A DNA stretch of 64,000 nucleotides, from contig JAQTXZ010000002.1 of the NCBI GenBank assembly GCA_028688515.1, positions 25,791 to 89,790 of the forward strand, given 5' to 3'. The translations under genes and the position numbers were made by a program. The notes under the pieces were generated by a model. It searched no databases and was not told the origin of the DNA. It saw nothing but the letters and a program-made list of their open reading frames with translations. Positions 12,174-64,000 of the stretch are shown here, in pieces; the first letter of the stretch is position 1, and every line of letters starts with the position of its first letter. Source of the stretch: Patescibacteria group bacterium. Lineage in GTDB: Bacteria > Patescibacteriota > Patescibacteriia > 2-12-FULL-60-25.

Positions 12174-12525
12174 GCAAATCGTTTAACAATTTGATGATTT
12201 TTTCGTCGCCTTGCACGCAGGTTCTTCCGTCCCAAAGCAGGGGAACGCCTGCGGTTGAAAAATTTAAGTTGCAGGTTTGGATGGCTTTTACCAGCATGGC
12301 GGCGTTGTCTTGATTGTGAAAAACTTCCCTGACGTCGATGGATGAAAATTTGGGGTTGCCGTAAATTTTGTCCGCCACTATTTCGCAGTGCGTGCAACCT
12401 TGACCGACAAAAACAATCGTCTTGTCGTTTGGCAACTGAACATCTGGCTTGCTCTGACTGATTTTTGTGTTGCATCCCGCGCCGATCATCATCAGTCCGA
12501 TTGCGACGATTATCATTTGCTTCAT
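12163..12525 (-). CDS. thioredoxin-fold lipoprotein (CxxC)
   Basis: Lipobox LMMIGAGC. GQGCTHCE active-site-like motif. ATG overlaps the upstream stop (ATGA). Confidence 0.6.
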   Translation of the reverse strand: MKQMIIVAIGLMMIGAGCNTKISQSKPDVQLPNDKTIVFVGQGCTHCEIVADKIYGNPKFSSIDVREVFHNQDNAAMLVKAIQTCNLNFSTAGVPLLWDGRTCVQGDEKIIKLLNDLPTN

Positions 12526-13898
12526 ATTGTTGCTAAAGCCGCTAAAATCCAAAACTGCATGGCCAGATCATTTTTAAAATAAGGCATGTCAATCATTCCG
12601 TGCACCAAGATGACGATTAGCGGGATGACCCACAACCAGCGAGGCGGGTCCATGGTCCCGGGTCCATGGTCCTGGTTACTAAGTTGCTTGTAGGCCAGGA
12701 CTACGTACCTAGGACGCTGTACCATTTTCACCCAAGCCACGCAGATCCAAATAAACGCCAGCAAGCCGAGCAGACCCGTTTCTATCCAAACCATGAGAAT
12801 GATATTATGCGGATGAGGAAAAATTTCCATCCAGGTTGCGGTGTGATACGGAGCGATCGCCGTCTGATAACTGCGCAGACCCGTACCAAGCAAGGGATGA
12901 ACTTTGATGATTTGAATCGACTCTTGCCAGATGACAGTCCGAACCATACTCGACCAGCGTTTGGTCGAGAAAATTGTTGCGTCGATGTTCGTCGAATTTA
13001 ATTGCGTGCTAAGAATTTGATATCCGACAATTGCGGCGACAATTAGTCCTAAAGCGGACAGGGCGGCTCCAACACGTCGAGTTTTTTTGTTGATGATGAG
13101 CGTCAAAACGATACCGATTCCAAACGCGATTATCCCTCCCATCGATTTTGCCAAAACAACCGCCGTTCCCGCCGCAATCGTCGCCGATAAAAATAATATA
13201 GAATAAAAATTAACTCCGAAATTCTTAATTCTTAATTCATAATTCTTAATTTTTAAGAGTTCCATCCAACAGACGACTCCAAACGGTACAACAAAAAGCG
13301 ACAGCCCGTTTGGAAAACCAAACACTCCCGTAGCCCGTCGTCCCGGCCACGCATCCCACGGATGCGGAATGCCCCAGCCTGTCGCGAATTGCACAATCGC
13401 ATATAATCCAAGCATGATCGTCACTGCAGAGATGCCATACATCAACCACTGTTTTGTACCTCTCTTATTAAGGGGGGCAGGGGGGATCAAGTTCGTCAGC
13501 ATGACGAAAATCAAAATCGGTTCCAGCATGAAAGCGCGCCAATGACCGAACGCGCCCCATTTGTCTTGCGCAACAAGGGCTGCGATGAGCGTCGCAACCA
13601 GCCACGCCGTAATCGGCCACACCCAGCGGCGCAGCGCGGCGTTGTTCTGTAGAGACGCAAAATCTTGCGTCTTGCTCACCAGCCAAATCGCAAACGAAAC
13701 CAACACAAACACCTCCAACGCAGTCGTCGGCAGCGGTCCGATGTTGAAGCGAATGACGTATAACGGAAGAAAGATGGGCAACAAGAAAGCCCACACGTCG
13801 AATATCGAATATCCGCTTCGCTGAATATCCGCTTCGCTGAATATCCGCTTCGCTGAATGTCGAATATCGAATTTCGAAAATAATTTTCCAAAATTCAT
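12522..13898 (-). CDS. O-antigen ligase/polymerase (Wzy-like) family membrane protein, start uncertain
   Basis: About 12 TM helices with a large loop. Lies directly downstream of a flippase gene. The N-terminus and two internal segments are encoded by repeat elements. An alternative GTG start is near 13796. Confidence 0.55.
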   Translation of the reverse strand: MNFGKLFSKFDIRHSAKRIFSEADIQRSGYSIFDVWAFLLPIFLPLYVIRFNIGPLPTTALEVFVLVSFAIWLVSKTQDFASLQNNAALRRWVWPITAWLVATLIAALVAQDKWGAFGHWRAFMLEPILIFVMLTNLIPPAPLNKRGTKQWLMYGISAVTIMLGLYAIVQFATGWGIPHPWDAWPGRRATGVFGFPNGLSLFVVPFGVVCWMELLKIKNYELRIKNFGVNFYSILFLSATIAAGTAVVLAKSMGGIIAFGIGIVLTLIINKKTRRVGAALSALGLIVAAIVGYQILSTQLNSTNIDATIFSTKRWSSMVRTVIWQESIQIIKVHPLLGTGLRSYQTAIAPYHTATWMEIFPHPHNIILMVWIETGLLGLLAFIWICVAWVKMVQRPRYVVLAYKQLSNQDHGPGTMDPPRWLWVIPLIVILVHGMIDMPYFKNDLAMQFWILAALATI

Positions 13899-13911
13899 AA
13901 TTCTTAATTTT
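13798..13911 (-). repeat. composite repeat element (inverted copy of 5754-5843) with 3 tandem GAATATCCGCTTCGCT units
   Basis: Direct reading. Fills the spacer between the flippase stop (13913) and the ligase-like gene, and is read through as coding. Confidence 0.85.
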
Positions 13912-13912
13912 G

Positions 13913-15551: not shown

Positions 15552-15803
15552 ATGTCCAAAAAGATTTCTCCCGGCGGCGACCATATGTCGGATGCCTCAC
15601 AACAGCCTGCGCAACAGATGATACAGGCCTCCAAAAACCAAAGACCGGCAGATGATACTTCCGGCGGGCTTTCGGCTAACCCGCGTATGAAACTTGCGGT
15701 TAATAAAATCGTCCACACGCCCGAAACTCCGGCGGATTACGAAAAAAGAGTTAAACTTGATCGGGAGTTAAGGAGTATCAAGGGCGATCAAGATATCAAA
15801 TAA
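15552..15803 (+). CDS. small hydrophilic hypothetical protein
   Basis: 83-aa ORF followed by a long AT-rich hairpin (15795-15860). No clear RBS. Confidence 0.35.
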   Translation: MSKKISPGGDHMSDASQQPAQQMIQASKNQRPADDTSGGLSANPRMKLAVNKIVHTPETPADYEKRVKLDRELRSIKGDQDIK

Positions 15804-16105
15804 CAAATAGCAAGAGCAACTAAGCGACTCTTGTTATTTGCTATTTGATATATGTTATTTGTTCCAGTCGCTTAACCGTCATGTTTTTGACCGAAGCCTC
15901 AAAAAATGCTATACTTAAATAAATAACCAAGAACCAAAAACACAAGAACCAATAATGACCGTACGTTTTATTCTCGCTATTATTTCTTGGAATTTAATTG
16001 GATATTGGCACTTGGTTATTGGAACTTAAAGATTCTATGCGGTTCTTAGCCCAAATATTCGGACAAGAGGCCAAACTATTTAATGTCTCTATTCGGAGAT
16101 ATTTG

Positions 16106-20793: not shown

Positions 20794-23340
20794 CTAAGCT
20801 CTCATTTTTTTATAGATATCGCTGCCGATTGCGGGGATCAGACCGAGTGCGACGGTCATCAGGAAAAGGCTGACGGGAATGGAAGTTAGGCTTAATTTAA
20901 AGTTTATGTGCGGTAGGTAAATCATGCCGACAAAGGCAACGAGCATCACCGTGTAGACGACGAGAAAAGTTTTGTTTTTTAGAATATCGCCGGTCAACAA
21001 TTCCGGTTTGCGGTAAGAGGCGGCAGTGATGACGTTGAAAAGATTGCTCCAAAGTATTACGCTAAAGCCGAGCGTACGCGCAGTTTCCACGCTGGCCCCG
21101 TATTTTAAAGCTAAATAATAAGTTGCAAAAGTCAAAGCAAAGATACTAATGCCTTGCACCAGTATGCGCAAAAATCTTTTGATTGAGATAATGGGTCTTT
21201 TTGGATCAAGGGGTTTGCGTTTGGCGATATCCGCCTCTGCGGGCATTGCCTCAAACACCAAAGAACAAGTGGGGTCTATAATCAGTTCTATCAGAACGAT
21301 GTGAATCGGTAAAAGCAAAGAGGGCATGCCCATAAGCGGAACGACCAGAGCAATTAAAATCACGTAAATGTGAATGCCGAAAATGTAAGAGATTCCTTTT
21401 TGTATGTTGTCATAAATGCGGCGCCCGTCGTGGATGGTGCTTACGACCGTATTCAATTGATCGTCCATCAAGATCATGTCCGCGGCTTCGCGTGCCACGT
21501 TCGTGCCGCCTAAGCCCATGGCAATACCAACATCGGCTTCTTTAAGCGAGGGTGCGTCGTTGACTCCGTCGCCGATCATGGCGACGATTTCTCCCGCCGC
21601 CTGCAGTGCGCGTACGATCTTGAGTTTTTGTTCCGGTTGAACGCGTGCAAAGATTTTGATGCCGTGAATTCGCGATGTCAGTTCCTCGTCCGTCATAGCA
21701 TCTATTTCCAGGCCGGTCATTATTTTATTTTTGTGATTGATGCCAACTGCCGTTGCGATGTGCAGTGCTGTTTTTGGATGGTCGCCGGTTATCATTCGCA
21801 CGGCGATTCCGGCGCGTTCGCAGGCCAATACAGCTTGTTTGGCTTCGGTTTTTGGAGGATCGCGAAACGCAAGCAGAGAAATGAATTCAAAATTATCGGC
21901 TTTTGATAAAGTCACCGGCAAAGCGCCGCGAACGTTCTTTTTCGCCAAAGCCAGAACGCGCATGCCGCGTGCAGAAAGTTTATCGACGTTTTTAAGTAAG
22001 AGCTTCTTTTCTTCCGCGGTCAGTTTTGATCGTTCGATGATTTGTTCTGCGCCGCCTTTGGCGTAAAGAGTCGTTTTGCCGGCATTCTTCCAAGCGTAAC
22101 CTATAAACTTCAATTTGTTGTCAAAACCGTATTCGCGCGTCAGGGCATTTTTTGATTGAAGGCTGTCGATATCAACGCCGGATTGTTTTGCTGTTTCAAA
22201 GATGGATAGATCTGCCGGATCGAACGGCTCCGACGGACAGGCGAGCATCGCATCTTTCAAAAACTCCTCACTCTTCATGTTCCGCCCCTCGCTGCCAATC
22301 ATGTCCTGCAGTTCCATTCGGTTGACTGTCAGTGTCCCCGTCTTATCAGTACAAAGCGTCGTTATACTGCCGAGCGTTTCGATGGCGTTGATTTTTTTTA
22401 TGAGGGCATTCTTTTTTGTCAGGCGATAAGCGCCGAGCGCGGCAAAAACAGCCAATACGACCGGCAGCTCTTCGGGAATTACGGAAATGGCAAGGGTAAG
22501 CCCTTTTAGCAGGCTGTCGATGAGATTTTTTGTGTTGGCAAAATTAATAAAAAATAGGGAGATGCAGGAAAACAAACCAATAATGCCGAAGATCTGCACG
22601 AGTCTTCTTGTTTTTTTCTGCAGGGGAGTGGGCGATTCGTTGATCTCAGCCAACGACTCTCCAATGCGTCCGTACTGCGTTTTGGTTCCAACGGCGGTGA
22701 CTTTTATTACAGCTTGACCGGTCAGGCATAGCGTTCCCGCGAATACGGAGTTCGAATCTCGAATATCCGCTTCGCTGAATATCCGCTTTGCTGAATATCG
22801 AATATCACTTTTGGTTGATTCCAAATCGAGTTTAGAGTTTCGAGTTTCGAAATTCGCTTTATGTATTGAACCGGATTCGCCGGTCAGCATCGATTCATCG
22901 ACCGAAAAGTTGGATGAGTCCAAAATCATGCCGTCGCCTGCGATGCGCTCACCCTCGCGAACAACCAGCGCGTCGCCTACAACAAGCTCATCGTTATTGA
23001 TGGAGATCAGTTTCTCGTCGCGGATAACGCTTATCTTTGGGGTTGAGAGTTCTTTTAGCGCGTCCAAGGCTTTGTCAGTCTTCGCTTCTTGATACAGATC
23101 AATGCCAATCATCAGCAAGACGCCTATCAGCATCAAAAAACCATCCCATGCTTCGCCGACCAAAAAGTAAATGAGCGCGGTCGCGAGAAGCAGCAACAAC
23201 ATCGGCTCGTTAAAGATTTGCATGACGTAATCAAAAAAGCCCTTCTTTTTCTTTTTAAAAAGAACATTGCCGCCGTTTTTTTGTCTGCGCACGGCTTCTG
23301 ATGTTGAAAGACCTTTAAAATGATCGTACTGCAACGACAT
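20794..23340 (-). CDS. P-type cation-transporting ATPase (P2, Ca2+/cation type)
   Basis: CTDKTGTLT, MITGDHPKTA and GDGVNDAPSLKEADVGIAMG motifs. Carries an in-frame repeat insert (DIRYSAKRIFSEADIR). Confidence 0.93.
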   Translation of the reverse strand: MSLQYDHFKGLSTSEAVRRQKNGGNVLFKKKKKGFFDYVMQIFNEPMLLLLLATALIYFLVGEAWDGFLMLIGVLLMIGIDLYQEAKTDKALDALKELSTPKISVIRDEKLISINNDELVVGDALVVREGERIAGDGMILDSSNFSVDESMLTGESGSIHKANFETRNSKLDLESTKSDIRYSAKRIFSEADIRDSNSVFAGTLCLTGQAVIKVTAVGTKTQYGRIGESLAEINESPTPLQKKTRRLVQIFGIIGLFSCISLFFINFANTKNLIDSLLKGLTLAISVIPEELPVVLAVFAALGAYRLTKKNALIKKINAIETLGSITTLCTDKTGTLTVNRMELQDMIGSEGRNMKSEEFLKDAMLACPSEPFDPADLSIFETAKQSGVDIDSLQSKNALTREYGFDNKLKFIGYAWKNAGKTTLYAKGGAEQIIERSKLTAEEKKLLLKNVDKLSARGMRVLALAKKNVRGALPVTLSKADNFEFISLLAFRDPPKTEAKQAVLACERAGIAVRMITGDHPKTALHIATAVGINHKNKIMTGLEIDAMTDEELTSRIHGIKIFARVQPEQKLKIVRALQAAGEIVAMIGDGVNDAPSLKEADVGIAMGLGGTNVAREAADMILMDDQLNTVVSTIHDGRRIYDNIQKGISYIFGIHIYVILIALVVPLMGMPSLLLPIHIVLIELIIDPTCSLVFEAMPAEADIAKRKPLDPKRPIISIKRFLRILVQGISIFALTFATYYLALKYGASVETARTLGFSVILWSNLFNVITAASYRKPELLTGDILKNKTFLVVYTVMLVAFVGMIYLPHINFKLSLTSIPVSLFLMTVALGLIPAIGSDIYKKMRA

Positions 23341-23506
23341 GCGGACATTATAACATGGAACATGTAACACGTAGCACATAACATGGAACAAAGAACATGG
23401 AATAGTTTGTCATTGCGAGCGGAGTTGGACGGAGCGCGGCAATCTGGGCTGTCATCTTGAACGCAGTACATTTCTGTCGAGACGACGGAAGTTGTATAAT
23501 GTATTT

Positions 23507-24460: not shown

Positions 24461-24656
24461 CCCTCTATCCACCCCTCATTTTGATAATATTGCGGGGGAG
24501 CCTTTCCCCCGTCGAACAGGGGAAAGGCGGTTATAGGTTAATTAGTTAAACGCAAGATTTTGCGTCTCTACAGAACGGCTCACTAACTCCTTTCCCTCGT
24601 CTGACGGGGGAAAGGTGTCACCGCAATAAGATGTAGTAGAGGTGACGGATAGAGGG
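24461..24656. repeat. ~200-bp composite palindromic element
   Basis: Outer arms CCCTCTATCC/GGATAGAGGG. Inner arms GGGGGAGCCTTTCCCCC.../...GGGGGAAAGGTG. The centre carries a copy of the ACGCAAGATTTTGCGTCTCTACAG hairpin. Confidence 0.75.
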
Positions 24657-51394: not shown

Positions 51395-51500
51395 AATGTT
51401 ATTTGGTTAAAAATTAAATATATTTCATTATACACAAGTTATACCGACCACGAAATAAATTACCAAACAAATCTTAAAAAAAGAAATTTTTGGCTATTTC

Positions 51501-51600
51501 ACTTAACGTATCCGAATAAACGAAGTTCGTTTGAAACGCAGTGAGAACGAATTTGCGAAAATGCCGAGCCGAGGCATTTTCCGTTTATTCGGTGTTAGAC
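51501..51600 (-). repeat. attC-like site C
   Basis: ATTTC-ACTTAAC-GTAT-CCGAATAAACG...CGTTTATTCGG-T-GTTAGAC. Confidence 0.75.
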
Positions 51601-51690
51601 GAGGGTTTGTTTCGTCCTCCTATTATATCAATATTCAAAGGCAAAACAAAAGCGCAGCGTCCCCTTGCGTATGCCACAAACATAAATTAT

Positions 51691-52383: not shown

Positions 52384-52414
52384 GAAAATTAATTTAGTTT
52401 TTGTGGCATATTTC

Positions 52415-52491
52415 GCCTAACGTTTCCGAGTATCTGATGTTGCGAAGCAATATGGGTGGAGCGAAGCGGAACCAGATACTCGGTGTTGTAC
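52415..52491 (-). repeat. attC-like site D
   Basis: ATTTC-GCCTAAC-GTTT-CCGAGTATCTG...CAGATACTCGG-T-GTTGTAC-GATGT. Confidence 0.8.
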
Positions 52492-52618
52492 GATGTAGAT
52501 TTTTTATCGTCGTCTTTAGTGGTACTTACGATATTTATTTTAAAAGAAAATTTGATTTTTTGTTTTGAAAAATTAAAGAGGGGTAGGGGGTGAATTTCAT
52601 TTTTCAAAGCTTATTATT

Positions 52619-53545
52619 CTACTTCTCAAGTAAGGGTCTTTGAAGCTCTGGGTTATTTTCGTCGATTTCGGCCATTTTATTTACTGGTATCAAATCAGCT
52701 ATAGATTCTTCACGTTTCCAATTTTGTAAAATATCCCAAATATTTCCTTCGCCAATGTAATCCATAGTTAGCTCACTTCTTTTTGCTTCATATTGCGGAT
52801 AAAGTACACTTTGCGGGTCTTTGATAAATCTTTCAGCAAAATCTTCTGTCCCATTGTAAACATCAGTAATCCATTCGGGTCTCAAGTCTAGTGTGTTTAC
52901 TTCTTTTTCCATTTCAATATTCATAGTTTTGAAGAGAGGATGAACTATTACATCATCGGAAGGTATAGAAAATTCAACAACAGGAAGTCCCTCTTTGTGA
53001 CCAGTGCGTGATTCAGCGGGATTGTGAGGGGGTTGATAAGAAGCTCCGACTGAGACTGAATTAAGTCCTGTCAAGCCCGGAAAATCACCACCGGGACCAA
53101 TATGCAGTTTGAATAATTTAATTCGAGGTATTTTGTGTTGAACAAAATTTCGATAACTATCTAATGAAAAATTGTCTGATAATTCAGCAAAGTCTTTTTC
53201 AAGTTGTGCGTAAATATCCTCTTGTTCAAGAAAACTTCGTAACGCATCTTTAATTCGTTTCGAATTTTTTTGAAAAGATTCTGCCGCATTAGGATTCTCC
53301 AAAACTGCATTTTGGGGATGGTTTAAAATTGCATTCAGTTCTTCATAACTAACCAATCTAAAATATCTGACAGGATTACCTTTGCTATCCTTGTCGGCGG
53401 CGGTTAGTATTTCCCGCTTACGTTCCTCTGGAAATAGATTGCGGGTTAACGATATTCTTTCTTCAATTGATGTGTCGGTAGCAGTAAGGCGAGAAATTAG
53501 AACATTTCGATTAATGTTTTCTGGCGTTGGCATTGCTTCGTTCAT
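52619..53545 (-). CDS. cassette gene: hypothetical protein
   Basis: 308-aa ORF bounded by sites D and E. No motif recognised. Confidence 0.6.
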   Translation of the reverse strand: MNEAMPTPENINRNVLISRLTATDTSIEERISLTRNLFPEERKREILTAADKDSKGNPVRYFRLVSYEELNAILNHPQNAVLENPNAAESFQKNSKRIKDALRSFLEQEDIYAQLEKDFAELSDNFSLDSYRNFVQHKIPRIKLFKLHIGPGGDFPGLTGLNSVSVGASYQPPHNPAESRTGHKEGLPVVEFSIPSDDVIVHPLFKTMNIEMEKEVNTLDLRPEWITDVYNGTEDFAERFIKDPQSVLYPQYEAKRSELTMDYIGEGNIWDILQNWKREESIADLIPVNKMAEIDENNPELQRPLLEK

Positions 53546-53638
53546 AAACCCCTTTATTATATTATTAAAAAAATGAAATTTTCTGTCTTTTTAAAATCAT
53601 TTAAACCCTATTTTACCACGAGATAAAAAATTTATTTC

Positions 53639-54256
53639 GTACAACGTTTCCGAATATCTGAAGTTGCGCCCGTGTTTATTGGTTAAAACTTCAAACATTC
53701 TACTATCTTAATTATATCACTAAACTTTGTTTTATCACAGCGCAATTTGAGTGGAACAGAAAAGAAAATCACAAATATTTTCCTTATTTTAAGCCCTTTT
53801 TTTGAATTTTTTGAAAGTGCTATGGACAAAGACTGAAAAATATGCTATAGTCTAGTGTCCAGTGGATTTCCCGCTGGCATACCTTACAAAGGAGGACATT
53901 ATGAGGATCGCTTTTCTTCTGGTAGCATTGTGGAATACGGTGGTGGCAGCAATTAACGTCAATATATTGCCGTTGTATATGTCACCGGAAGCCATGGTAT
54001 ATGTAACACCGTTATCACAGCTTCTTCCAATCTGTATACCACTCGTAATTGCGGCAGCATTGCCAAGTGGAGGCAATTCAATCACGCTCAACGACCTTCG
54101 CAAATGTTTGTCGTAAGCAATTCACGACTTACCCCCTGGTGGAATCTATTTCTACCAAGGGCTCTTTTTTTCAAAAAATTCAAAAAAAGGGCCATATAAA
54201 TTGTAAAAAATATTTGTGATTTTCTTTTCTGTGTAACCAGATATTCGGTGTTAGAT
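53639..54256 (-). repeat. attC-like site E, interrupted or expanded by a 477-bp IR-flanked module
   Basis: Left half ATTTC-GTACAAC-GTTT-CCGAATATCTG. Right half CAGATATTCGG-T-GTTAGAT-GATGT. The two halves are 590 bp apart. Confidence 0.55.
53901..54116 (+). CDS. small 2-TM hydrophobic protein inside site E (reverse orientation, own promoter and SD)
   Basis: ATG is 6 nt after AAAGGAGGA. TGGACA-17-TATAGT lies upstream (about 53823-53850). MRIAFLLVALWNTVVAAINVNILPLY.... Confidence 0.5.
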   Translation: MRIAFLLVALWNTVVAAINVNILPLYMSPEAMVYVTPLSQLLPICIPLVIAAALPSGGNSITLNDLRKCLS

Positions 54257-54355
54257 GATGTTTTGCCGACTCTGCAAGCTACAAATTACTTTATTGGAAC
54301 AAACTTTTTATCTGCACGAACATTTTTTAGTTTCTATATTACAAGGCGAAATTTC

Positions 54356-54422
54356 ATCTAACGTCATCGCGATATCTGACGTTTTAATGTGGCGAAGCCC
54401 TTGCAGATATCGCGTGTTAGGC
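54356..54422 (-). repeat. attC-like site F
   Basis: ATTTC-ATCTAAC-GTCAT-CGCGATATCTG...CAGATATCGCG-T-GTTAGGC-GATGT. Confidence 0.8.
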
Positions 54423-54439
54423 GATGTAAAGCCCAAAAA

Positions 54440-55309
54440 TTAATTTATAACCGCCATTAATGTTCTTTCTTTGCCAAATTTATTATAATCTTCTTTTGCT
54501 AAGGATAGACTATACGGAACGAAGGCTTGATCAATTAAACTTTCTGTTTTTTGATAAATGGTTTCAAAAAATTTTTTGTGTTGCACCGTGGCTTCAAAAC
54601 CATCCGTGTAAAAAACCACCAAATCTCCCTTGCTTAATCCGATTTCTCCAAAATTCATAAACTTTTCAGCTTCATTTTCACCGGTTAATGCGCCGTAAGA
54701 AACACATTTATTTTCAACGATTTTTTTGGCGTTGTTTCTATATTCAGACCTGATCATCTTGCGGTACTTAGGCATGGCAAAATTGAAATCGGATTTTTGC
54801 AGATTTGATTTTTCATATTCTTCAAACGTCTTCATCCAATTCGGTGTCTGAAATTTAATTTTGCCATTTTTATCATAAACAATAATTCCACAGTCACATA
54901 TTCCAGCCCAGAATAGTTTGCCGTTATAAATAATTCCACCACTGGCAACGCAGCCAAAAAAATCATTTATCAAGTAATCAACTTTTTTAGTATTGTCTTT
55001 GTTCAACTCGGCAATCTTTTTATTTCCAAAAATAAATGCGTTTCTGATTGTTTTTAATGAAGGAATTTTGTTATCTAGAGATTTTACAAACGATTCACAA
55101 AAAATATCAGCTGAAAAACGGGCACCACTTGGATTTGGATAATTTTTCAGAGAATCTTCTATGGACAAGTTTGTAAAATCTTTTGGAGAAATTGGATCTC
55201 GTGTAATTCCATCGGCAACACAAAAAATTTTTCCATCAACCATCATTGAATCTTCCGGAGGCATTAGATGTCCGTATAATAAATTTGGCAAAGATACTTT
55301 ATAAATCAT
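54440..55309 (-). CDS. cassette gene: PP2C/SpoIIE-like phosphatase-fold protein (tentative)
   Basis: FCVADGITRD and VVFYTDGFEA resemble the two Asp-containing PP2C motifs. Confidence 0.4.
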   Translation of the reverse strand: MIYKVSLPNLLYGHLMPPEDSMMVDGKIFCVADGITRDPISPKDFTNLSIEDSLKNYPNPSGARFSADIFCESFVKSLDNKIPSLKTIRNAFIFGNKKIAELNKDNTKKVDYLINDFFGCVASGGIIYNGKLFWAGICDCGIIVYDKNGKIKFQTPNWMKTFEEYEKSNLQKSDFNFAMPKYRKMIRSEYRNNAKKIVENKCVSYGALTGENEAEKFMNFGEIGLSKGDLVVFYTDGFEATVQHKKFFETIYQKTESLIDQAFVPYSLSLAKEDYNKFGKERTLMAVIN

Positions 55310-55333
55310 AAATTAATTTTTGGGCTTTATTTC

Positions 55334-55451
55334 GTCTAACGTTCCGGGCTATGCGAAGACCGCCTCAAGCGGTTTTGGGTGAGCGTCCTAATTCGCTTTA
55401 GCTACCTAAATACTAGCAAAACCGTCGCGAACCGCATAGCCCGAGTTAGCT
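55334..55451 (-). repeat. attC-like site G
   Basis: ATTTC-GTCTAAC-GTTC-CGGGCTATGCG...CGCATAGCCCG-A-GTTAGCT-GAAGT. Confidence 0.75.
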
Positions 55452-55673
55452 GAAGTATTCCTTTTCTTTTTTCCTTGATTTTACTGTTAAAATTTTTAAA
55501 TTTCTTTTTCTTTTCTGTGTGGAGGGCAAGAGGGGAAATAAAGGGGTGAATTGCCCGGAGCTACTAAAAAACTTTACTACATATAAAAAGGAAGGGGTTT
55601 AGGTTGGGGGTGGGGTGGGGTGGGGTGCTTTTTATTTAGGTTTGATTCCTAAAATTTTAATGTAAACTTACAG

Positions 55674-57929
55674 TTACTTATCAAATGTAACTATACCCTG
55701 TGCCTTGTTGTAAATATCAATTTTATTATCTATATCTACACGATTTACCAACCAACCAAGTAATTCGCATTGATGCACAAAATCATTAATTCTATTAACA
55801 CCATTAATCTCTTTTAATGTCACAACCAAACCAAAATTAATATCATTACTGCGCCTACTCAATCTTTCTTTTGATTTAACGCTGAGTCCCCACATGCCTT
55901 TATCGTAAACATCGCGTGCAAGAACTCTATCTGTAAAAATTTCATTTATATGTTTAGTGTTGTCCCATTTTCGGTAAAATTTCCTGGCGTTACCTTCGTA
56001 TATATAATGTTTTTCACCGTCATTATTATTTTGACAATTCTTGTTTATAGACTTGATGCCCTTGCCTTTGATTCTACCAAAATATATATCTAGCTCCGTG
56101 TTTGTGTAATCAACTCCTTGATTAATAGAGCAACTGGGGAAATAACATAAGGTAGCTTTAGCAACAAAAGGGTGTTTATTGTTATTTATTGGAACAGGTA
56201 AATTATAAGCATATGTATCCCATTTTTTAGAGATACCACTAATAATAAACTTTATTTCATCATTATCCGCTTTTATAATGTTTTCTATATTTTTAGGTAC
56301 TACACCATGACCCACAAAGGGTGCTAATTTAGTATTATTACCAATGCTATTCCACCCAGCAGCAGCATCTATAATTAGTGCTTTTGCGACTTCTCGGTTA
56401 AGCCCAAGGACTTCTATTAAATAAGCAATTTTTCGTGTTACCCATGGAGCTGCGTATGAAGTACCACTACATAAGCCTTCGCCAGTTGGCGTGCACACCC
56501 TAAGATAATCGCCTTTATCACCGCCATAACTGCTAACGTCTGGTTTATTAAAAAATGATAAAACTAACCCCTTTCTTGAATAGGTTGCTGGAGACCCCTT
56601 ACTATTTACCGAATTTACAACTATAGCGTTAATTGAATCGGCGGGTGAGCCAATCATTTTTTCCACTCTACTTTCATCGTCGCGTTTATTAGTACCTGCT
56701 ATTACAAAAATAACATTATTTTCGTATTGAATTTCGTCTAATATAGCAGCTTCTGGTGATATAAAATTGGGATTAATTTCTCTATCGGATCCCAAAGATA
56801 GATTCCATACTGTTATATCGGGATTTGAAGTAACTATCTCTCTTATGGCCTTCATAATAGAAAAAGCACTATACTGTCCTTGTGCGGCTACGCCAAAATG
56901 CCTAACTTTAAATCTACCACACCCATCATCTAGCTCTGGGTGAATAGTTGGCCCATCAACAATAATTGAACTTACCGATGTTCCGTGAACATAATCTTTG
57001 GATTCCGTAGGTATCTCCTCATTGATCATTTTTCTAAAATCCACCCATTCAGAAAAATATACTGATTTATCAAATAAAGTATCTATTACCCCTACAATAG
57101 GTTCGTCTTTTGGTGGGTCTATTGTTTTTATAGTCGCATCGCTGCTTGCGTCATCAACAACCTCCTCAAAACTTAGTTTAGATATATCTTCTGTCGACAT
57201 TGCAATAAGATAAGGAGCCTTGTCTGACAAGAGTTTAATTTCGTCTGGATATAAAAGTAAGGTGGTTTCACTTAGTATTTTATCAGGCTGAATATTTATA
57301 CCGATCCCTTTCATCAATTCAGTTAAATCGACATTTGTTTTATATACTGTAATTATCGATCTATTGTTTGTATTCGCGCTATTATTAGGAACCTTAAAAC
57401 CTTCTATATAATGTGAATCTACAATTATATTTCTAAAATTTGTTTTTGTGACCCCATATTTTTCATACTTAATATTTTTATCATTTAAACCACTAATCAA
57501 ATCGTGGGTTATCTTTCCGTTAAATATTTCATCTAATAGCTTTATACAGCCTTCTAATTTTTTAATTGTATCCTGAATTACTTTTTCGCTAACATGATGC
57601 GTAATCACATGTTTTCTTGTCACTTCATTAGCAAATCTCGCACCAACAACAGAATCATTTACAGAGCCACTATTTGATAATAGCCCACTTATCCTATTGC
57701 TCTTAGCGATGACGTCGATATAACAAACATCAACTAGGCAACCTTTGATAATACTTTGTCTAGTCCAATAATCAGCTAAGGCATTAAGCTGACTAACAAA
57801 AGACTTTAGTTTATCAGAATCTATAGATGGGGAATTTTTAGGAATGTTACGAGAGCTTGGCCGGATATCATGCGAGCGTTCCTGAAGAGTTCCTTTTAAT
57901 TGAAGTATGTTATTCATAATTTTAGACAT
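55674..57929 (-). CDS. S8 (subtilase) serine peptidase with ~290-aa unknown N-terminal domain (IetS-like)
   Basis: Catalytic contexts VGVIDT (D), HGTSVSSII (H), WNLSLG (N) and GTSYAAPWV (S). Confidence 0.85.
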   Translation of the reverse strand: MSKIMNNILQLKGTLQERSHDIRPSSRNIPKNSPSIDSDKLKSFVSQLNALADYWTRQSIIKGCLVDVCYIDVIAKSNRISGLLSNSGSVNDSVVGARFANEVTRKHVITHHVSEKVIQDTIKKLEGCIKLLDEIFNGKITHDLISGLNDKNIKYEKYGVTKTNFRNIIVDSHYIEGFKVPNNSANTNNRSIITVYKTNVDLTELMKGIGINIQPDKILSETTLLLYPDEIKLLSDKAPYLIAMSTEDISKLSFEEVVDDASSDATIKTIDPPKDEPIVGVIDTLFDKSVYFSEWVDFRKMINEEIPTESKDYVHGTSVSSIIVDGPTIHPELDDGCGRFKVRHFGVAAQGQYSAFSIMKAIREIVTSNPDITVWNLSLGSDREINPNFISPEAAILDEIQYENNVIFVIAGTNKRDDESRVEKMIGSPADSINAIVVNSVNSKGSPATYSRKGLVLSFFNKPDVSSYGGDKGDYLRVCTPTGEGLCSGTSYAAPWVTRKIAYLIEVLGLNREVAKALIIDAAAGWNSIGNNTKLAPFVGHGVVPKNIENIIKADNDEIKFIISGISKKWDTYAYNLPVPINNNKHPFVAKATLCYFPSCSINQGVDYTNTELDIYFGRIKGKGIKSINKNCQNNNDGEKHYIYEGNARKFYRKWDNTKHINEIFTDRVLARDVYDKGMWGLSVKSKERLSRRSNDINFGLVVTLKEINGVNRINDFVHQCELLGWLVNRVDIDNKIDIYNKAQGIVTFDK

Positions 57930-58968
57930 TTAGTTCTCTCGAAACTTGGCTTTTAGAAACTCCTGTTAATATTTCTATTTCTCTAACCGTAAAACCGCTG
58001 TGTTGTAATTTTTTTAAATCTATCTTGTTGTCTTTAGTCCGTATAGATTCATATAATTTTTTTAAGTAATCGTATTCATTATTTGGATCACTAAACGCTA
58101 GTGCGGTTTTAATTATATTTTTTAAATCACCGGGATAAGGAATATGATCTAATGTTAAAAATATTTTTTTAAATAGCCTCATATTGCGACTAGCGAATTT
58201 AAATTTTGTTAAAAACTCATTTAACATTGATTCTGCGACTTCAATCAATTCTTCTTTGTTATATCTATTAAAATTTATAGTTGAATCAAATCTTCTAAGT
58301 AACGCCTTATCGAATTGCCCAAAAAGATTAGTGGTGGCTATAAGTACGATTTCATCACTTAATCCATCCAACCCTTTTAAAACAGAAGATGTTACTCGAC
58401 CCATTTCTCGTAAATCATTAGAATTAATTCTATCTAGAGCTATTGCGTCTATCTCGTCAAACAAAATAATCACTTTTTCTGGGTGAGGTAATCTACTTAA
58501 CTCTGTAAAAACGGAAGCAATGTTTTTGGACGTTTGGCCAAGCTTGCTATCAATAACACTATCAAAATCTATCGCATATAAATCACGTTCAAGAATACGA
58601 GCAATCTGTTTTGCGGTTTCAGTTTTACCTGTTCCAGGATCACCCTCAAATAAGAACTTACTAACTCCAATTTTATGTCCAATTGAATTTATAATGCCCA
58701 CTATATCGTTTTTTATAAGAGTGGGGAGGGGGAAGGAGTTACTACTATCTAAGTTCACTCTCATAAAAAATGGAAGGCTGTATTCGTTGTCCTGTGGTAC
58801 AAAAGTATTAGCACCAGACAGCAAAGCCATAATATATTGAGCCAATTCAGAATCTCCAGTAGAATCGAAGTACCTAGCTATATCATAAGCTTCATTTTTA
58901 AAACCCGCCTCATTTTTTTCCGCATGGTATTTAATTAAATTTAAAATATTTTTTTTGCGCATATACAT
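57922..58968 (-). CDS. AAA+ ATPase with C-terminal HTH (IetA-like)
   Basis: Walker A GDPGTGKTETA, Walker B ILFDEIDAI, ATTN sensor-1. C-terminal FTVREIEILTGVSKSQVSRELN. 8-nt overlap with the S8 gene. Confidence 0.88.
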   Translation of the reverse strand: MYMRKKNILNLIKYHAEKNEAGFKNEAYDIARYFDSTGDSELAQYIMALLSGANTFVPQDNEYSLPFFMRVNLDSSNSFPLPTLIKNDIVGIINSIGHKIGVSKFLFEGDPGTGKTETAKQIARILERDLYAIDFDSVIDSKLGQTSKNIASVFTELSRLPHPEKVIILFDEIDAIALDRINSNDLREMGRVTSSVLKGLDGLSDEIVLIATTNLFGQFDKALLRRFDSTINFNRYNKEELIEVAESMLNEFLTKFKFASRNMRLFKKIFLTLDHIPYPGDLKNIIKTALAFSDPNNEYDYLKKLYESIRTKDNKIDLKKLQHSGFTVREIEILTGVSKSQVSRELNV

Positions 58969-59231
58969 TTTTTTAATGAAATGAATTTATGTTATCCATA
59001 CTTTATATTAACATATTTGGGACACCAGTACAACAAAATGGGACACAATAATAAAAAATTGCGATTTCATTGATGTTTTGCCTTTCATATATTTAATCCT
59101 ATTAATGCAAAAAACGCCTTAACTAGGCGTTTTCCGTTGCTGTCTTTAGCTTAAACAATATATGAAATTTCACTTTTTCCATTAGAACCACATTTTTTGT
59201 GCATTTTCCATGCTGGTTTTGATTTATTTAG

Positions 59232-60395
59232 TTACCGATTTCCCTTTGCCCTATTATGCGTCTTACACAACATCTGACAGTTTTTTGTTGCAGTTTTACC
59301 GCCTTTGCTCCAAGCGGCAACATGATCTGCATCCATATCACTCAAGCTCCAAATTTTATCTATGTTTGCATCGTGGCCTATTGCACAATGTGGGCAGTTT
59401 GAAACACCTTTTTCCTTTGCAGTAGCGGTTTGAACTTCGTAAACTGACCGCTTAGTCGGGTCATCAAATACACGCACCTCCAGTAATTTTTTATCAACCT
59501 CACCACCTAAAACATATTCGAAAATCCCTCGTCGATTCTTTACGTAAGCATCACCGTACAGCTTCTGTACTGAAGCGGACACTTTAGCCGGGTCGTATTT
59601 TTTCTTGTGGTAAGTTTTGTAAAGCCTGTTCCACTCAAGACCTTTCATTTCGCTTTCAACGTCTGTGAACGTGGTTGAAACCCAGTCGATAACAGTATTA
59701 AAATGCTTTTTTAATTCGGTTATATTTTTATCATTACGGTGCATGCTCATATAATTGTCGATCGCACCATCAGAAACCCAATCCAAAGCACGCTCCAAAT
59801 ATGCTTGGCGCTTAATGTCACCAGCAATGTACGTGCTCCACTTCTGTACGTTTGCGTTTTGGCTATTACTAAACTCTTCGCGCGCCTTGGTAACAAAAGG
59901 CCCTGAATAAACAGCGTTCAAGATTTCTTGCTCTGTCAGTGGCACACCAGCGATATTGATAGTTTTAAACCAATCCTTAATTTCAGGTTCGTCACCTTCA
60001 CATACATACACTAGTAATTTAGTGTCCATTATTTGCTCACGCTGACTACTAGCCATGCCACTGAAATACTGTTCATGGCCATTTTTATCTTTGACAGCAA
60101 ACTTACCTGCCACAAACCGACCAATACTTGTGATGCGTTGCTGTCCGTCGAGCACTTCAAATATATCAGTACCTGCTTGGTTAAAATAAATTAAACCTAT
60201 CGGATAACCTTTCAAAATTGAATCGATCACCGCAACGTCTCTTTTACCATCGGCATAAATGTAATTACGTTGGTACTCTGGCTGAATAGTTAACTTGCCT
60301 GACAAGCCAAACAAGCCTTTTCCTTCCAGTTCGTTATAAACAAAACCGTCGCAAATTTCTTTTATAGTGATGTCTTTTTTTAGGGTTGTTTTCAT
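59232..60395 (-). CDS. DUF262 (ParB/GmrSD N-terminal-like) + HNH nuclease fusion
   Basis: [12 protein letters not shown] motif. C-terminal CPHC...DADHV...[18 protein letters not shown]/zinc-hook. Confidence 0.8.
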
Positions 60396-60397
60396 AA

Positions 60398-61552
60398 CTA
60401 TTTTTGCAGTTGTTTAACTAATAATCGCGGAAATGTTTGACGATAAAGTTTTTCATTTACAATGTAATAAGTTTTGTTTTTAAGTGGTTCACTAATTTTT
60501 AAAACTGCACCATCATTTAATTTAGTTACCTTACTTTTTTCATTATTTTCTCCGACCTGTATTTGTTCAGGATAGGTTTTGGTAGCAGCACCGAACCAGG
60601 TTTTAGTTAAACCCAGAATTTCAAATTGATCAGGATTGTACTTATCTAGAAACGAAACAGGAACCCCCATAACACCATTGTAATTGCTAGGGATAGCGTC
60701 GACAAAAGGAACTTCAATTGCGTTAAAATTATCATATTTTTCGTACGCTTGTTTTCCTTGCAGTTTTTTGTTGAATTTTTTGTTATCACTCATAGACATC
60801 AGACTCATGGGTTGATGGCGACGACCGTGATCAAGATTAGTGAACCAACCCACGTTTCCAAACGACTGAGTTGAGCCATCGGGTTTATTAAATACTTTGA
60901 CTTTACTATATCCAAACCATATTTTATTGTCCTTAACCAACGGAAAGATTTCTTTTAGAGTAATAGAGTTTTGATTACCTATAATAAGAAAATTCCTTTT
61001 ATATTCTACTAGCTGTGCCACGTACTCACGAAATAAACTAAATGGTGGATTAGTCACCACAATATCACTTTTCTTAAGAAGTTCTATACATTCGTCACTA
61101 CGAAAATCACCGTCGCCGTCAAGAGGAGTCCATTCGTTATTTTTATTCGCTCGAAGTTGTTGTGCAATATCTTCTAGTGTAAAGGACCCGTCGCCGTCTA
61201 TATCGCCAACTTCGTTGATAATAAATTTGTTAGCAGTGATTTTAGGTCTCCCCTTTGATTTGGTAAGAGTTTTGTCATCGCCAAATAATCCCAGTTGTGT
61301 ATTGGCTACGGGTGAGGGTTTGTAACTCGTTGAAATAAGTTTTTTTAGGCCCAAACGATCAAAGTTTAATACAAAATAACGAAAGAAATTGCTTTCGTAT
61401 GGGTCGTCGCAGTTGCTGTAAATTACCTTATTTTTAAAAGTATTTGGGTTATACTCAAGATAAGATTCAATTTCTTTCTGAATATCTGAAAATTGCGTAT
61501 AGAATTCATCATTTTTTGCTTTTTTTGCTTTTGTGAGGTTTTTGTTTGCCAT
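60398..61552 (-). CDS. N6-adenine DNA methyltransferase, EcoRI-methylase-like family
   Basis: NDEFYTQ N-terminal motif and TNPPFS (NPPF) catalytic motif. ATG at 61552 (the TTG at 61573 is an alternative). The stop is 2 nt from the DUF262-HNH start. Confidence 0.8.
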
Positions 61553-61863
61553 ACATTCAATATATTCCTCCAATTACATTAATAAATCAAGATATTAATA
61601 TAAAATTAGATTTTCGTAGAAACTCCTTATAACCCCCTCTAAAATTAAATCCCAACATTATGAAAAGAAAAAGAAATTTGAAAATTTTACTAAATGGCTT
61701 TGTTCGTAGCTAAGAAAAAAGAAAAGGAATATTTCAGCTAACTCTTTTTTATACGAAAACACTTCGTATAGCTATCCACATCTTGCCACTTAGGCGAAAA
61801 AATGTATAGAATGGATTAGGTGTGAAGAGTTGACGGCCTCACTAATTATTAAAGTGAGGTTTT

Positions 61864-62679
61864 ATGTTAGATGAACAATTGAAGCGGACGTCGGACGAGA
61901 TGGTTTTGCGTAATTACAGTCAAAAAACGGTTAAGGCGTATGTTGGTTGTATTGAGGATTATCTAAGTCAGAATCAAGCGGACTTATATTGGTGTGATAT
62001 CGAGGCGATCCGTCAATTTTTGCTGGAGAAGCAGTCAAGAGGGTTGGCGCCGCAGACTATCAATCTATATCTAAACGCCATAAAGTTTTATTATCGTGAT
62101 GTTTTGCATTTAGGCGACACGATCAATCTAAAATTCGCTAAACGCTCGAAGAAGCTACCGGTTGTTCTGTCGAAAAGCGAAGTTTTACGAATCATTGACG
62201 CTGTCAGCAATCCAAAACATAAAGCGATGATCGCTTTGGCATACGGTGCCGGCCTTCGTGTTAGCGAGGTCGTTAAATTGCGGATCGGGGACTTGAATTT
62301 GGAGGAGTTGACCATCCATCTCAAGCAAGCAAAGGGAAACAAAGATCGGATTACCATCTTGTCTGCATCTATAGTAAATGATTTAAGACGGTTGATGACT
62401 GGAAGGTTGGTCGGCGATTTTGTGTTTGCCAGTGAACGCGGAGGGAGATTGACGGAGAGGACGGCGCAAAAGATTTTTGAACATGCCCTTAAAGCCGCCC
62501 GAATCGGTCGGGGAGCGACATTTCATTCGTTGAGGCACAGCTTCGCGACTCATCTTTTGGAAAATGGAGTTGATGTCAGGTACGTTCAGGAACTTCTTGG
62601 TCACCAGAATATTCGGACTACGCAGATTTATACGCACATAACCAATCCGGCGATGCGGCGGATTGTAAGTCCGCTATGA
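61864..62679 (+). CDS. tyrosine recombinase, IntI-like but without the IntI-specific insertion
   Basis: N-terminal SAM-like YSQKTVKAYVGCIEDYL. Catalytic contexts AGLRVSE (R), HSLRHSFATH (H-x-x-R) and LLGHQNIRTTQIYTH (H...Y). C-terminal ...RRIVSPL resembles IntI1 ...GVRSPL. Confidence 0.9.
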   Translation: MLDEQLKRTSDEMVLRNYSQKTVKAYVGCIEDYLSQNQADLYWCDIEAIRQFLLEKQSRGLAPQTINLYLNAIKFYYRDVLHLGDTINLKFAKRSKKLPVVLSKSEVLRIIDAVSNPKHKAMIALAYGAGLRVSEVVKLRIGDLNLEELTIHLKQAKGNKDRITILSASIVNDLRRLMTGRLVGDFVFASERGGRLTERTAQKIFEHALKAARIGRGATFHSLRHSFATHLLENGVDVRYVQELLGHQNIRTTQIYTHITNPAMRRIVSPL

Positions 62680-64000
62680 AGTTTACAGATTTCGCTGCCA
62701 AGCAAAAACCCGCAGTTATAATGCTTTCATTCTTGTCCGGCATCGCTATCCATTCCTTTTTCCCGCTGACGCCGGTTCCGACATTTGTTTGGTGGGGGAT
62801 TGCAGGTTTGATGTTGGTCGGTCTCATATTCAGAAAGCCCCTCTCCTGCTCGTGTGGGAGAGGGGTTGGGGTGAGGGCGCAGCGGTGGGACAGCGATGAT
62901 GTTGTTAAACAAGGGATTCCTCGACTGCGTGCCTTTAGTTTGGGCACTACGCTCGGAATGACAATGAGTTTTTTAGTGATAGGTCTCCTCCGTTTCGACA
63001 TCGCAATTCCTCGCGCGATCGACATCAAAGAGTCGCAAACTTTTGTCGGCGTTCTGACCGACGTCAACGACGGACTCTTCGGCAAACAGGGCACTATTGC
63101 CATTCAACCCCCCTTTTCCAAAGGGGGCAGGGGGAATCAACTTATAACAATTAACCTCAAAACCTCCCTCCCTCTCGGTTCCGCTATTAGCTTCTCGTGT
63201 GCATTAAAACCGGTTGCGCAAAAACCTGACGAGCTTGATCGACGGTTTGCGTATCGTCTGCATTTTTCTCAAGCAACCTGCTCGCCGAAAGATTTGACCG
63301 TTATCAAGCCGCCTGCGTGGTGGGATGTGCGGCAAAGTTTTGTCGAGCTGCGCGCGTGGACGAACTTGCGCATCAAATCCATATTGCCCGGCGACGAAGG
63401 TGCATTGATTGCGGGGATGCTTTACGGCGAACGTGGCATGTCGCAACAATCGAATAATCTTTTTCGCAACGCAGGTCTCACTCACTTGATCGCCGTCTCC
63501 GGTTCAAACATCACGATCGTCGCGTCGATCGTTTTTGCAATTTTGCTCGGCATTGGGCTTTGGCGCAGACAGGCGTTTTGGGTTACGACCGTGACGCTGC
63601 TCGCGTATGTGACGTTTACCGGCTTTTCTGCTTCGGTCGCGCGCGCGGCCGTGATGGGTTGGCTGGTTTTGTTTGCGCGCTACATCGGGCGTCGTCCAAA
63701 AACTTGGCATGTGCTGCTCGTGTCCGCATTTGCATTGTGTCTGCTGGACCCGTGGATGCTGGCATTCGACGCGGGATTTGCGCTTTCATTTTTGGCGACA
63801 ATCGGTCTCATGAGCTGGTCGCCGATATTCAGTCGTCTCTTAAAGTTTTTACCCGAGATTGGCGGTCTGCGTGAGGCTGCAGCGACGACAATCTCTGCGA
63901 CATTGATGACGACTCCTTACATGGCTTTTGCTTTTGAAAAGATATCGCTCGCCGGACTTGTCACGAACTTGATCGCTGTTCCTCTCGTGCCTTGGGCCAT
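62676..64000 (+). CDS. comEC: DNA internalization competence protein ComEC/Rec2 (3'-truncated by window edge)
   Basis: Frame is open from ATG 62676 to the window end (absent from the ORF track because there is no stop). GLTHLIAVSGSNITIV and SASVARAAVMG competence-domain motifs. ATGA overlap with the recombinase stop. Confidence 0.85.
   Translation, partial: MKFTDFAAKQKPAVIMLSFLSGIAIHSFFPLTPVPTFVWWGIAGLMLVGLIFRKPLSCSCGRGVGVRAQRWDSDDVVKQGIPRLRAFSLGTTLGMTMSFLVIGLLRFDIAIPRAIDIKESQTFVGVLTDVNDGLFGKQGTIAIQPPFSKGGRGNQLITINLKTSLPLGSAISFSCALKPVAQKPDELDRRFAYRLHFSQATCSPKDLTVIKPPAWWDVRQSFVELRAWTNLRIKSILPGDEGALIAGMLYGERGMSQQSNNLFRNAGLTHLIAVSGSNITIVASIVFAILLGIGLWRRQAFWVTTVTLLAYVTFTGFSASVARAAVMGWLVLFARYIGRRPKTWHVLLVSAFALCLLDPWMLAFDAGFALSFLATIGLMSWSPIFSRLLKFLPEIGGLREAAATTISATLMTTPYMAFAFEKISLAGLVTNLIAVPLVPWA

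Follow-up and report, generated by a model that had tools for sequence, protein, structure and literature searches.

Short repeats of several dispersed families are read in frame within variable loops of conserved genes in a patescibacterial genome

Rickettsia palindromic elements (RPEs; Ogata et al. 2000) are dispersed palindromes of about 100-150 bp that carry no transposase and lie both between genes and in frame within unrelated housekeeping genes, where they are read through as an extra peptide and differ between related species (PMC10969869, PMC3184786). Rickettsia conorii has 44 such elements, nearly half of them in open reading frames (ORFs) (PMC10969869). In-frame fusion to host ORFs is also known for several miniature inverted-repeat transposable elements (MITEs), namely ERIC, BOX, Correia and the Anabaena MITEs (PMC3184786, PMC10969869). 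Here a comparable case is described from a 64,000-nucleotide stretch of a Patescibacteria group bacterium (GCA_028688515.1, contig JAQTXZ010000002.1, positions 25,791-89,790; hereafter the window), in which short repeats are read in frame within leuS, a P-type ATPase gene, a Wzy_C/O-antigen-ligase family gene (hereafter Wzy) and comEC. Literature searches found no description of in-frame repeat inserts in the candidate phyla radiation (CPR) or Patescibacteria.

The initial annotation of the window had listed eight such segments in these four genes, and all eight are present within a few bases of the positions given there, with the quoted peptides recovered on translation. Translation of the four host ORFs likewise bears out that the frame is kept in every segment, with no stop and no shift. 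Each segment was compared with the whole genome (1.29 Mb, 48% GC, 4 contigs, 99% complete) by BLAST and by pattern counts, and each belongs to a family that is dispersed through it. Orthologous proteins for alignment came from as many as 21 further species of the genus or from public contigs, the relatives in the public collection being groundwater 'Patescibacteria group' assemblies and, in one more distant case, an assembly labelled Candidatus Uhrbacteria. These alignments show that the segments are not conserved ancestral parts of the proteins: the loops that hold them vary in length and content between species and most segments are lineage-specific, PPAPLNKRG and IKNYELRIKNFG of Wzy being carried by several species each. 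The earlier description of the segments as insertions holds for most of them but not for IKNYELRIKND in leuS, which on the alignment appears to be a replacement or relic rather than a plain insertion because the relatives have a segment of equal length. Repeat-derived segments beyond those eight are found at both ends of Wzy, in the 20 residues that follow the second leuS site (Table 1) and in the heptamers that flank the ATPase insert (22807-22851). It is likely that the segments are copies of several short repeat families that carry no gene, and that these were written into permissive loops and later overwritten there. Where genomes must be told apart, G000 is the genome studied, G018 is its sister species, and G004, G005, G007, G009, G013, G014 and G015 are other members of the genus.

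Table 1. Host genes, repeat-derived segments and cassettes of the '23S rRNA intervening sequence protein' (IVP). Positions are those of the window unless a contig of the studied genome (C2 to C4) is named; TRF, Tandem Repeats Finder.
Feature	Position	Strand	Repeat or family
Wzy_C / O-antigen-ligase family host gene	12522-13898	-	Pfam PF04932
Wzy C-terminal loop, RPRYVVLAYKQLSNQDHGPGTMD	12648-12716	-	degenerate inverted heptamer array; TRF period 14
Wzy loop 3, IKNYELRIKNFG	13215-13250	-	28-mer AATTAAGAATTATGAATTAAGAATTAAG + AATTTCGG
Wzy loop 2, PPAPLNKRG	13458-13484	-	decayed half of GC-rich palindrome family; unmatched by strict pattern
Wzy loop 1, KTQDFASLQ	13647-13673	-	one arm of dispersed hairpin CTGTAGAGACGCAAAATCTTGCGTCT
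Wzy N-terminus, MNFGKLFSKFDIRHSAKRIFSEADIQRSGYSIFD	13797-13898	-	composite: AATTATG start codon, then GATATTC + 16-mer arrays
P-type ATPase host ORF	20794-23391	-	
ATPase actuator-domain loop, just after TGES	22753-22851	-	TTCGAAA/CTCGAAA heptamers + 16-nt GATATTC+AGCGAAGCG array
ATPase insert DIRYSAKRIFSEADIR	22759-22806	-	encoded by 16-nt array
leuS host ORF	34458-37280	+	
leuS insert 1, ISVSS...KEDD	35298-35417	+	shortened copy (~105 nt, duplicated ends) of element with terminal inverted repeats, by family alignment
leuS site 2, IKNYELRIKND	36693-36725	+	exact 28-mer AATTAAGAATTATGAATTAAGAATTAAG; TRF period 7
leuS extra 20 residues, GEYALRAPKDVAGRVEDVVK	36726-36785	+	GGACGTT-type repeats
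comEC host gene	starts 62676	+	
comEC insert 1, PLSCSC...LGMT	62838-62963	+	module A, GC palindrome half PLSCSCGRGVGVRA; module B, second family QGIPRLRAFSLGTTLGMT
comEC insert 2, PPFSKGGRGNQ	63108-63140	+	GC hairpin CCCCCCTTTTCCAAAGGGGGCAGGGGG; strict member of 18-copy family
IVP cassette with inverted arrays	C4:112649-113173		PF05635
IVP cassette with inverted arrays	C3:108577-109035		PF05635
IVP cassette with inverted arrays	C2:137631-138096		PF05635
IVP cassette with inverted arrays	C2:15251-15679		PF05635
IVP cassette with inverted arrays	C2:93353-93764		PF05635

The inserts are a mixture of unrelated repeat types, comprising heptamer and 16-mer arrays, small GC hairpins and hairpin elements of 100-150 nt bounded by terminal inverted repeats (TIRs); the tandem heptamers frequently form inverted arrays. 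For the AATTAAG/AATTATG heptamer array there are 84 genome matches at up to two mismatches over 21 nt against 23 for a reversed control, and its Wzy and leuS copies within the window are 95% identical over 37 nt. The 16-nt array consists of GATATTC and AGCGAAGCG and has 26 genome matches, 22 of which are in ORFs. AGCGAAGCG sits between GATATTC units and contains the sequence GCGAAGC (window 22761-22799 and 13807-13858), which is that of a DNA mini-hairpin of unusual stability, closed by a GAA loop; in this genome neither the GC hairpins nor the 26-nt hairpin has obvious heptamer flanks. A hairpin of 20-26 nt, (CTGTAG)AGACGCAAGATTTTGCGTCT, has about 40 genome matches, and the GC-rich palindrome CCCCCTT..AAGGGGG(CAGGGGG), which spans 20-36 nt and is read as PPLxKGGxGG, has 18 strict copies, 11 of them in ORFs. 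The TIR hairpin family (about 105-150 nt) has conserved ends, TTTCTCTTCTGTCATTTCGACCGAAGCG...CGCTCGAGATGACAAAGAG, folds end to end and includes the first leuS insert, while the first comEC insert is built from two further families with different sets of genomic copies as judged by BLAST. An Rfam scan of the window at gathering thresholds returned four tRNAs only and matched none of the repeats to a known RNA family.

The likeness to RPEs that the initial annotation had drawn stands as a mode of working, in that dispersed repeats are read through in frame, and falls as a family membership: the hosts belong to different phyla, no sequence relationship is claimed and common descent is not expected. 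A dispersed palindrome of about 100-150 bp without a transposase gene is seen only in the first insert of leuS and that of comEC. Most inserts here are 28-60 nt long and derive from 7- or 16-nt tandem units or from GC hairpins of 20-36 nt, members of several unrelated families occupy the same hot-spot loops and take one another's place, and the scale is larger, at about 140 of some 1220 ORFs as against 44 elements in R. conorii. With MITEs, the leuS and comEC elements share terminal inverted repeats, long hairpin folds, the lack of a gene and in-frame fusion to ORFs, and the leuS family, with ends TTTCTCTTCTGTCATTTCGACCGAAGCG and CGCTCGAGATGACAAAGAG and a length of 105-150 nt, has the MITE build of TIRs around a non-coding core of 50-400 bp. 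The leuS and comEC elements differ from MITEs in that no consistent target-site duplication is apparent, and that this genome yielded no parent insertion sequence with ends that match. The heptamer repeats of cyanobacteria (STRR), reportedly described by Elhai et al. in Genome Research in 2008, are said to contain nested small dispersed repeats and to be mainly intergenic in large genomes. In both cases heptamers dominate the simple repeats and IKNYELRI-type peptides look like readings of cyanobacterial arrays, and the GCGAAGC unit between GATATTC units may correspond to the nested hairpins. In contrast, the host here is a CPR genome of 1.3 Mb, in which about one array in four is deep inside conserved genes. 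What sets the present case apart is the combination of a CPR genome, units of 7 and 16 nt that preserve the frame in certain combinations only, several unrelated families that occupy and swap the same loops of essential enzymes, about a tenth of the ORFs affected and one element that is letter-perfect across diverged orthologues.

The leucyl-tRNA synthetase (LeuRS) encoded by leuS carries its first insert in the first β-hairpin of the editing domain, where it is translated as ISVSSVISTEAEKSQ...SRLRRTSLEMTKEDD and where, on alignment to the solved structure, 39 residues stand against 4 in T. thermophilus LeuRS. The whole insert forms a single long hairpin from end to end (z -3.1; none of 200 shuffles was as stable). 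Between the conserved GASIRF and VEVFTTRPDT blocks the segment ranges from about 5 to 42 residues across 12 species, and at the DNA level at least six unrelated fillings occur among them: a pure AAATTCG/AAATACG array, AATTACG plus GCGGGAC arrays, an inverted GTCGCAC/GTCCCA array, another element with TIRs (GTCATTGCGAG...CTCGCAATGAC) that is carried by the two species next in closeness, the G000 element itself, and a short, apparently empty version. The G000 copy bears the end motif GTCATTTCG twice and this doubling may be a relic of an earlier element. At the second leuS site, the equal-length segments of the relatives read IKNYELRIEGE in G013 (near-perfect), IENYKLRQKGE in G009 (decayed) and LEHQASKTDGK in G007 (unrelated). 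At another site of the G013 gene the same element, 36 nt long, takes the place of 42 nt of native sequence, and replacement therefore occurs besides insertion. The extra 20 residues are absent from G007, G009, G013 and G014, and G018 has a different element there that is about 37 residues longer. As a separate observation, the LeuRS proteins of G013 (L010:1501-4356, minus strand) and G014 (L012:1-2841, plus strand) have an entire NUDIX hydrolase domain, some 120-130 residues long, inserted directly behind the editing domain (PF00293, E-values 9e-13 and 7e-8), at a position where G000 and the other species have nothing.

The actuator-domain loop of the P-type ATPase is about 20 residues longer than that of Listeria LMCA1, a Ca-ATPase of solved structure. 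The G018 orthologue, which is 95% identical, lacks exactly 39 nt, corresponding to two 16-mers and one heptamer or 13 codons, and its version of the loop carries CCGAATA/CCGAACC heptamers. In distant orthologues this position is almost empty.

Wzy has five loops that vary across the genus. Its N-terminal composite is common only to G000 and G018, and the roughly 90 nt at the 5' end are near-identical to an intergenic composite at 5748-5844. The ATG of the AATTATG unit, followed by AATTTTGG (13892-13898; also 5776-5790), is the apparent start codon of the gene (MNFG...), and the repeat may supply translation starts. The hairpin behind loop 1 has copies of 100% identity at 37285-37312 and 24550-24576 and some 30 more in the genome; KTQDFASLQ is common only to G000 and G018 and the other species have other fillings. 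PPAPLNKRG of loop 2 is common to four species (G000, G018, G009 and, in expanded form, G004) and elsewhere unrelated sequences stand at this position. The loop 3 peptide IKNYELRIKNFG is found in G000, in G018 with one mismatch and in the distant G005 with 28 of 28 bases of the 28-mer in flanks that are about 65% identical. The element is absent from G009 and G004, which have the minimal LRKIWDGEG, and further species fill the loop with SAKCKMQN, RTTYSVQR, hairpins of the PLIPPLTRG type or a MITE. The C-terminal loop of the orthologues contains other heptamer-derived peptides or nothing.

The first insert of comEC folds strongly (z -3.6) and is absent from all 10 of 10 orthologues at up to 65% identity, while ComEC relatives of 79% identity have module A as a full palindrome without module B. 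The second insert has a counterpart, PLDKGGKGDF, only in the nearest relatives.

Repeats of this kind extend well beyond the window. Of the genome, 36 kb (2.8%) is covered by 13-mers with five or more occurrences, and these merge into 814 repeat regions, of which 373 are intergenic, 153 are at ORF edges and 288 are inside ORFs. Deep regions, at least 40 codons from the start of the ORF and at least 15 from its end, account for 206 of the 288 and are located in 140 of about 1220 ORFs, counted on a greedy longest-ORF call that is crude and differs from a gene prediction. Seven further conserved hosts were checked, namely QueA, asparagine synthase, a ClpB-like ATPase, PriA, MurL-MurD, PheT and Elp3. 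Counts of tandem arrays at TRF scores of at least 24 are dominated by chance period-6 matches, which are common in a shuffled genome too, and thresholds of 30 or 36 were used instead; even at 24, the real genome has 548 period-7 arrays against 72 in the shuffled one. Of the 653 arrays that score at least 36, 360 have a period of 7, 14 or 21 and only 3 a period of 5 or 8. At a score of at least 30 there are 473 arrays of heptamer period built from 104 different units, and 121 of these arrays are deep within 91 ORFs that are 150 residues or longer.

The repeats also account for the large length differences between orthologues of sister species. Nucleotide alignment of the whole window against G018 was too noisy in the divergent parts and gene-by-gene protein alignments were used instead. 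They covered 23 orthologue pairs from the stretch of the window that is syntenic with G018. In proteins of at least 80% identity, all indels of 10 residues or more are repeat-derived, and these indels are in the ATPase, three times in leuS and in a 574-aa ORF (5844-7568, minus strand). The latter ORF has no Pfam match, is 94% identical to its G018 counterpart and has near its C-terminus a 14-residue insert, ASSKDGLSQDDRGL, that is absent in G018. Outside the window, a 433-aa protein (C4:179980-181278 in G000; L085 in G018) contains the heptamer array ITNPNSKFQIPNS in G000 as against IKNYELRIKNFG in G018; with different arrays at one site in sister species, array content has therefore been swapped over a short evolutionary distance.

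Copies within genes are filtered for orientation and frame. All 21 deep genic matches of the 16-mer family are in sense orientation, with no antisense match; on the reverse strand of this repeat every frame contains TGA. The strict AATTAAG element is open in one of six frames and every genic copy uses that frame; a fifth unit in the open frame would give TAA, and in each gene this unit is altered to AATGACG, AATTTCG or AATGAGG. Per heptamer array, a mean of 4.9 of 6 frames are open deep in ORFs compared with 2.2 for intergenic arrays. Apparent antisense genic copies of AATTAAG were rejected as such, since they consist of a different unit, AATTTGG/AATTTTG, with an open reverse strand. This filter is the pattern predicted by translation of the copies and not by their removal from the mRNA. 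A similar rule holds in the Beggiatoaceae, where stop-codon content governs the orientation of in-ORF arrays (PMC4679880). There, TAACTGA direct repeats are abundant and mostly form leaders just upstream of start codons, and the minority in ORFs are in stop-free orientation, mostly at protein ends and with one dominant unit (PMC4679880). By contrast, the present genome has 104 units, the arrays are in internal loops of essential enzymes and their content turns over between species.

The repeat-derived peptides, about 0.5% of residues in total, have a mean hydropathy of -0.88, whereas the ORFs of 150 aa or more average -0.17 as a set, and disorder-promoting residues make up 68% of the peptides as against 55%. 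In the proteins of Borgs, fast-evolving in-ORF nucleotide repeats create disordered regions (PMC9879509), and the segments described here resemble these in being hydrophilic, probably disordered and often in membrane or surface proteins (PMC9879509). The units here are 7 and 16 nt long, not multiples of three, so that just some combinations of them preserve the frame, and identical copies of an element turn up at loci that are unrelated. Borg units, in contrast, are reportedly divisible by three and are said to arise locally.

It is proposed that the copies would be written into permissive loops either by a transposition-like copy-and-paste or by templated patch repair or gene conversion from other copies, and that pre-existing repeats or hairpin-prone DNA probably make certain loops targets. 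Those that survive would be the copies with a stop-free orientation and frame and a net length that keeps the frame, frame-breakers having been lost, and they would be translated as tolerated, hydrophilic and probably floppy extra loops that are presumably close to neutral for the host protein. Part of the diversity of units probably comes from local slippage. Copying between loci is supported by the occurrence of the 28-mer AATTAAGAATTATGAATTAAGAATTAAG in five unrelated genes and of the roughly 90-nt composite at both the 5' end of Wzy and an intergenic site. Several observations weigh against this account. A mobilising enzyme was not found, with no DDE_Tnp_1 match in the genome, other transposase families not having been searched. 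A Y1 transposase was considered as a mobiliser of the REP (repetitive extragenic palindrome) type and rejected, as the genome has just one partial copy, located in a GC-rich island that has hairpins of its own and no matching repeats. The aligned flanks of 10 copies of the TIR family have no consistent direct repeat that would represent a target-site duplication. The 104 heptamer units fit local slippage better than one mobile family, and the 28-mer is identical at 28 of 28 positions between orthologous sites whose flanks are 56-66% identical, which would be unexpected of a neutral passenger. Finally, the putative placement in surface loops rests on alignments to the solved LeuRS and Ca-ATPase structures, in which the inserts fall at gaps between conserved blocks, an AlphaFold2 model of LeuRS (10-sequence alignment, mean pLDDT 49, pTM 0.32) being too poor to use.

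Alternatively, each array could arise locally by replication slippage in a tolerant loop, in which case there would be no movement between loci and any sequence similarity would be due to convergence. Many of the 104 distinct heptamer units are confined to a single locus and the same loop holds different units in different species, both of which suit this explanation, and heptamers are the commonest long simple repeat in many bacteria, for which polymerase slippage has been proposed (PMC4679880). Nevertheless, slippage would not be expected to produce an identical, non-periodic 28-mer (unit order AAG-ATG-AAG-AAG) in five unrelated genes or shared composites of about 90 nt, nor does it apply to the TIR elements and GC hairpins, which are not tandem repeats, and of the 22 genomes of the genus only 4 have the 28-mer in amplified form. 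As an explanation of the whole, slippage is therefore unlikely, and it probably contributes to some arrays and not to all.

The behaviour of the 28-mer is not what a neutral passenger would be expected to show. Its five exact copies in G000 are all inside ORFs, whereas of the eight copies of a one-mismatch variant ending in AATTATG the two that were placed are both outside conserved genes (one intergenic, the other in an 89-aa ORF). The cases of 28 identical bases are G000 and G015 in a 404-aa ORF and G000 and G005 in loop 3 of Wzy, and the chance that 28 bases would all be retained at a flank identity of about 65% is of the order of 10^-5. Species that branch between the carriers have no array at the loop 3 site. 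Among 22 genomes of the genus, four have 15, 21, 12 and 9 copies of the family and the other 18 have 0-1; G009 has no family members, with a decayed look-alike in leuS only and nothing in the Wzy gene. The constancy of the element is open to three readings, namely repeated insertion at the same codon, homogenisation against a genomic pool, or selection on the nucleotide sequence, and the pattern in G009, although a single data point, favours homogenisation against the pool.

The genome also has six genes of the PF05635 family (IVP), five of which are flanked by inverted arrays of a cassette-specific unit of 7-10 nt, as in the example with AAGGACT x6.7 upstream and GTCTTTA x9.7 downstream, and two of the six are flanked by arrays of AATTA[AC]G, the unit found in leuS and Wzy. 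Many intergenic inverted arrays resemble these cassettes without the gene (for example 15797-15847). The inserts within genes differ from intervening sequence and IVP cassettes in that they have no IVP gene and are mostly single arms.

It could be argued that the in-gene copies are kept for a function of the nucleotide sequence or the peptide, such as a protein-binding site (for instance for IVP proteins), a signal in RNA processing or regulation, or a disordered linker under selection. The perfect conservation of the 28-mer in two genes and two species pairs with diverged flanks would point this way, as would the restriction of the exact AAG-ending variant to genes, the AATTA[AC]G arrays around two of the six IVP genes and the mostly genic distribution of the 16-mer family (22 of 26 matches). 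However, intermediate species without the element at the same sites keep intact genes, unrelated sequences fill the same loop in other species, and a decayed copy in a genome without family members, as in G009, fits pool homogenisation better than a function at the site. Such a function is accordingly regarded as improbable.

Beyond the proposed copying into permissive loops, it is conceivable, if unlikely, that the hot-spot loops are actively overwritten by templated copying from a pool of heptamer and hairpin cassettes, possibly the IVP cassettes, whose product would be an Avd-like four-helix bundle. Were this so, copies within genes would stay identical to the pool in different species and the content of the loops would turn over fast, and the process would represent a previously undescribed system of targeted sequence replacement in CPR bacteria.

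That the inserts are removed before translation in the manner of 23S rRNA intervening sequences, so that the proteins never carry them, is very improbable. The first inserts of leuS and comEC do form long stable hairpins of the kind cut by RNase III, and the genome does have six IVP-type cassettes, five with inverted-array flanks. Yet excision would need no compatibility of frame or stop codons, and every genic copy examined keeps both, with the orientation of the 16-mer at 21:0; bacterial RNase III cuts without ligation and would thus destroy the mRNA, and the heptamer and 16-mer inserts are unstructured (z -0.5 and -1.1). An artefact of assembly or binning, in which repeats, a classic source of misassembly, were misjoined into genes of this metagenome-assembled genome, is the least credible explanation and practically negligible, as the same inserts recur at the same codon positions in genomes that other studies assembled independently from different samples (for example, in G018 for Wzy, AsnB and the 404-aa ORF, and in G005 and G015 for the 28-mer), all frames are intact and the genome is 99% complete in 4 contigs.

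Short repeats rather than point mutation are the main source of length differences between orthologues in the genus, whose members are ultra-small bacteria, including those of aminoacyl-tRNA synthetases, which bears on how proteins gain loops in genomes that are otherwise losing material. The inserts map permissive sites in essential enzymes. They also affect the alignment, trimming and annotation of CPR genes, in which repeat peptides can create false homology and false 'hypothetical proteins'. The question that they raise is what keeps a 28-base element letter-perfect where its gene surroundings have diverged by a third or more.

Two parts of the window differ from the syntenic contig of G018 as a whole. 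The AT-rich cassette region of about 17 kb at 44820-61740 has no counterpart there and synteny resumes at the junction of the recombinase and comEC. The GC-rich region at 28629-33527, which follows a tRNA-Gly, likewise has no G018 counterpart, with about 1.5 kb between the matching flanks in that genome, and this is consistent with an island specific to G000.

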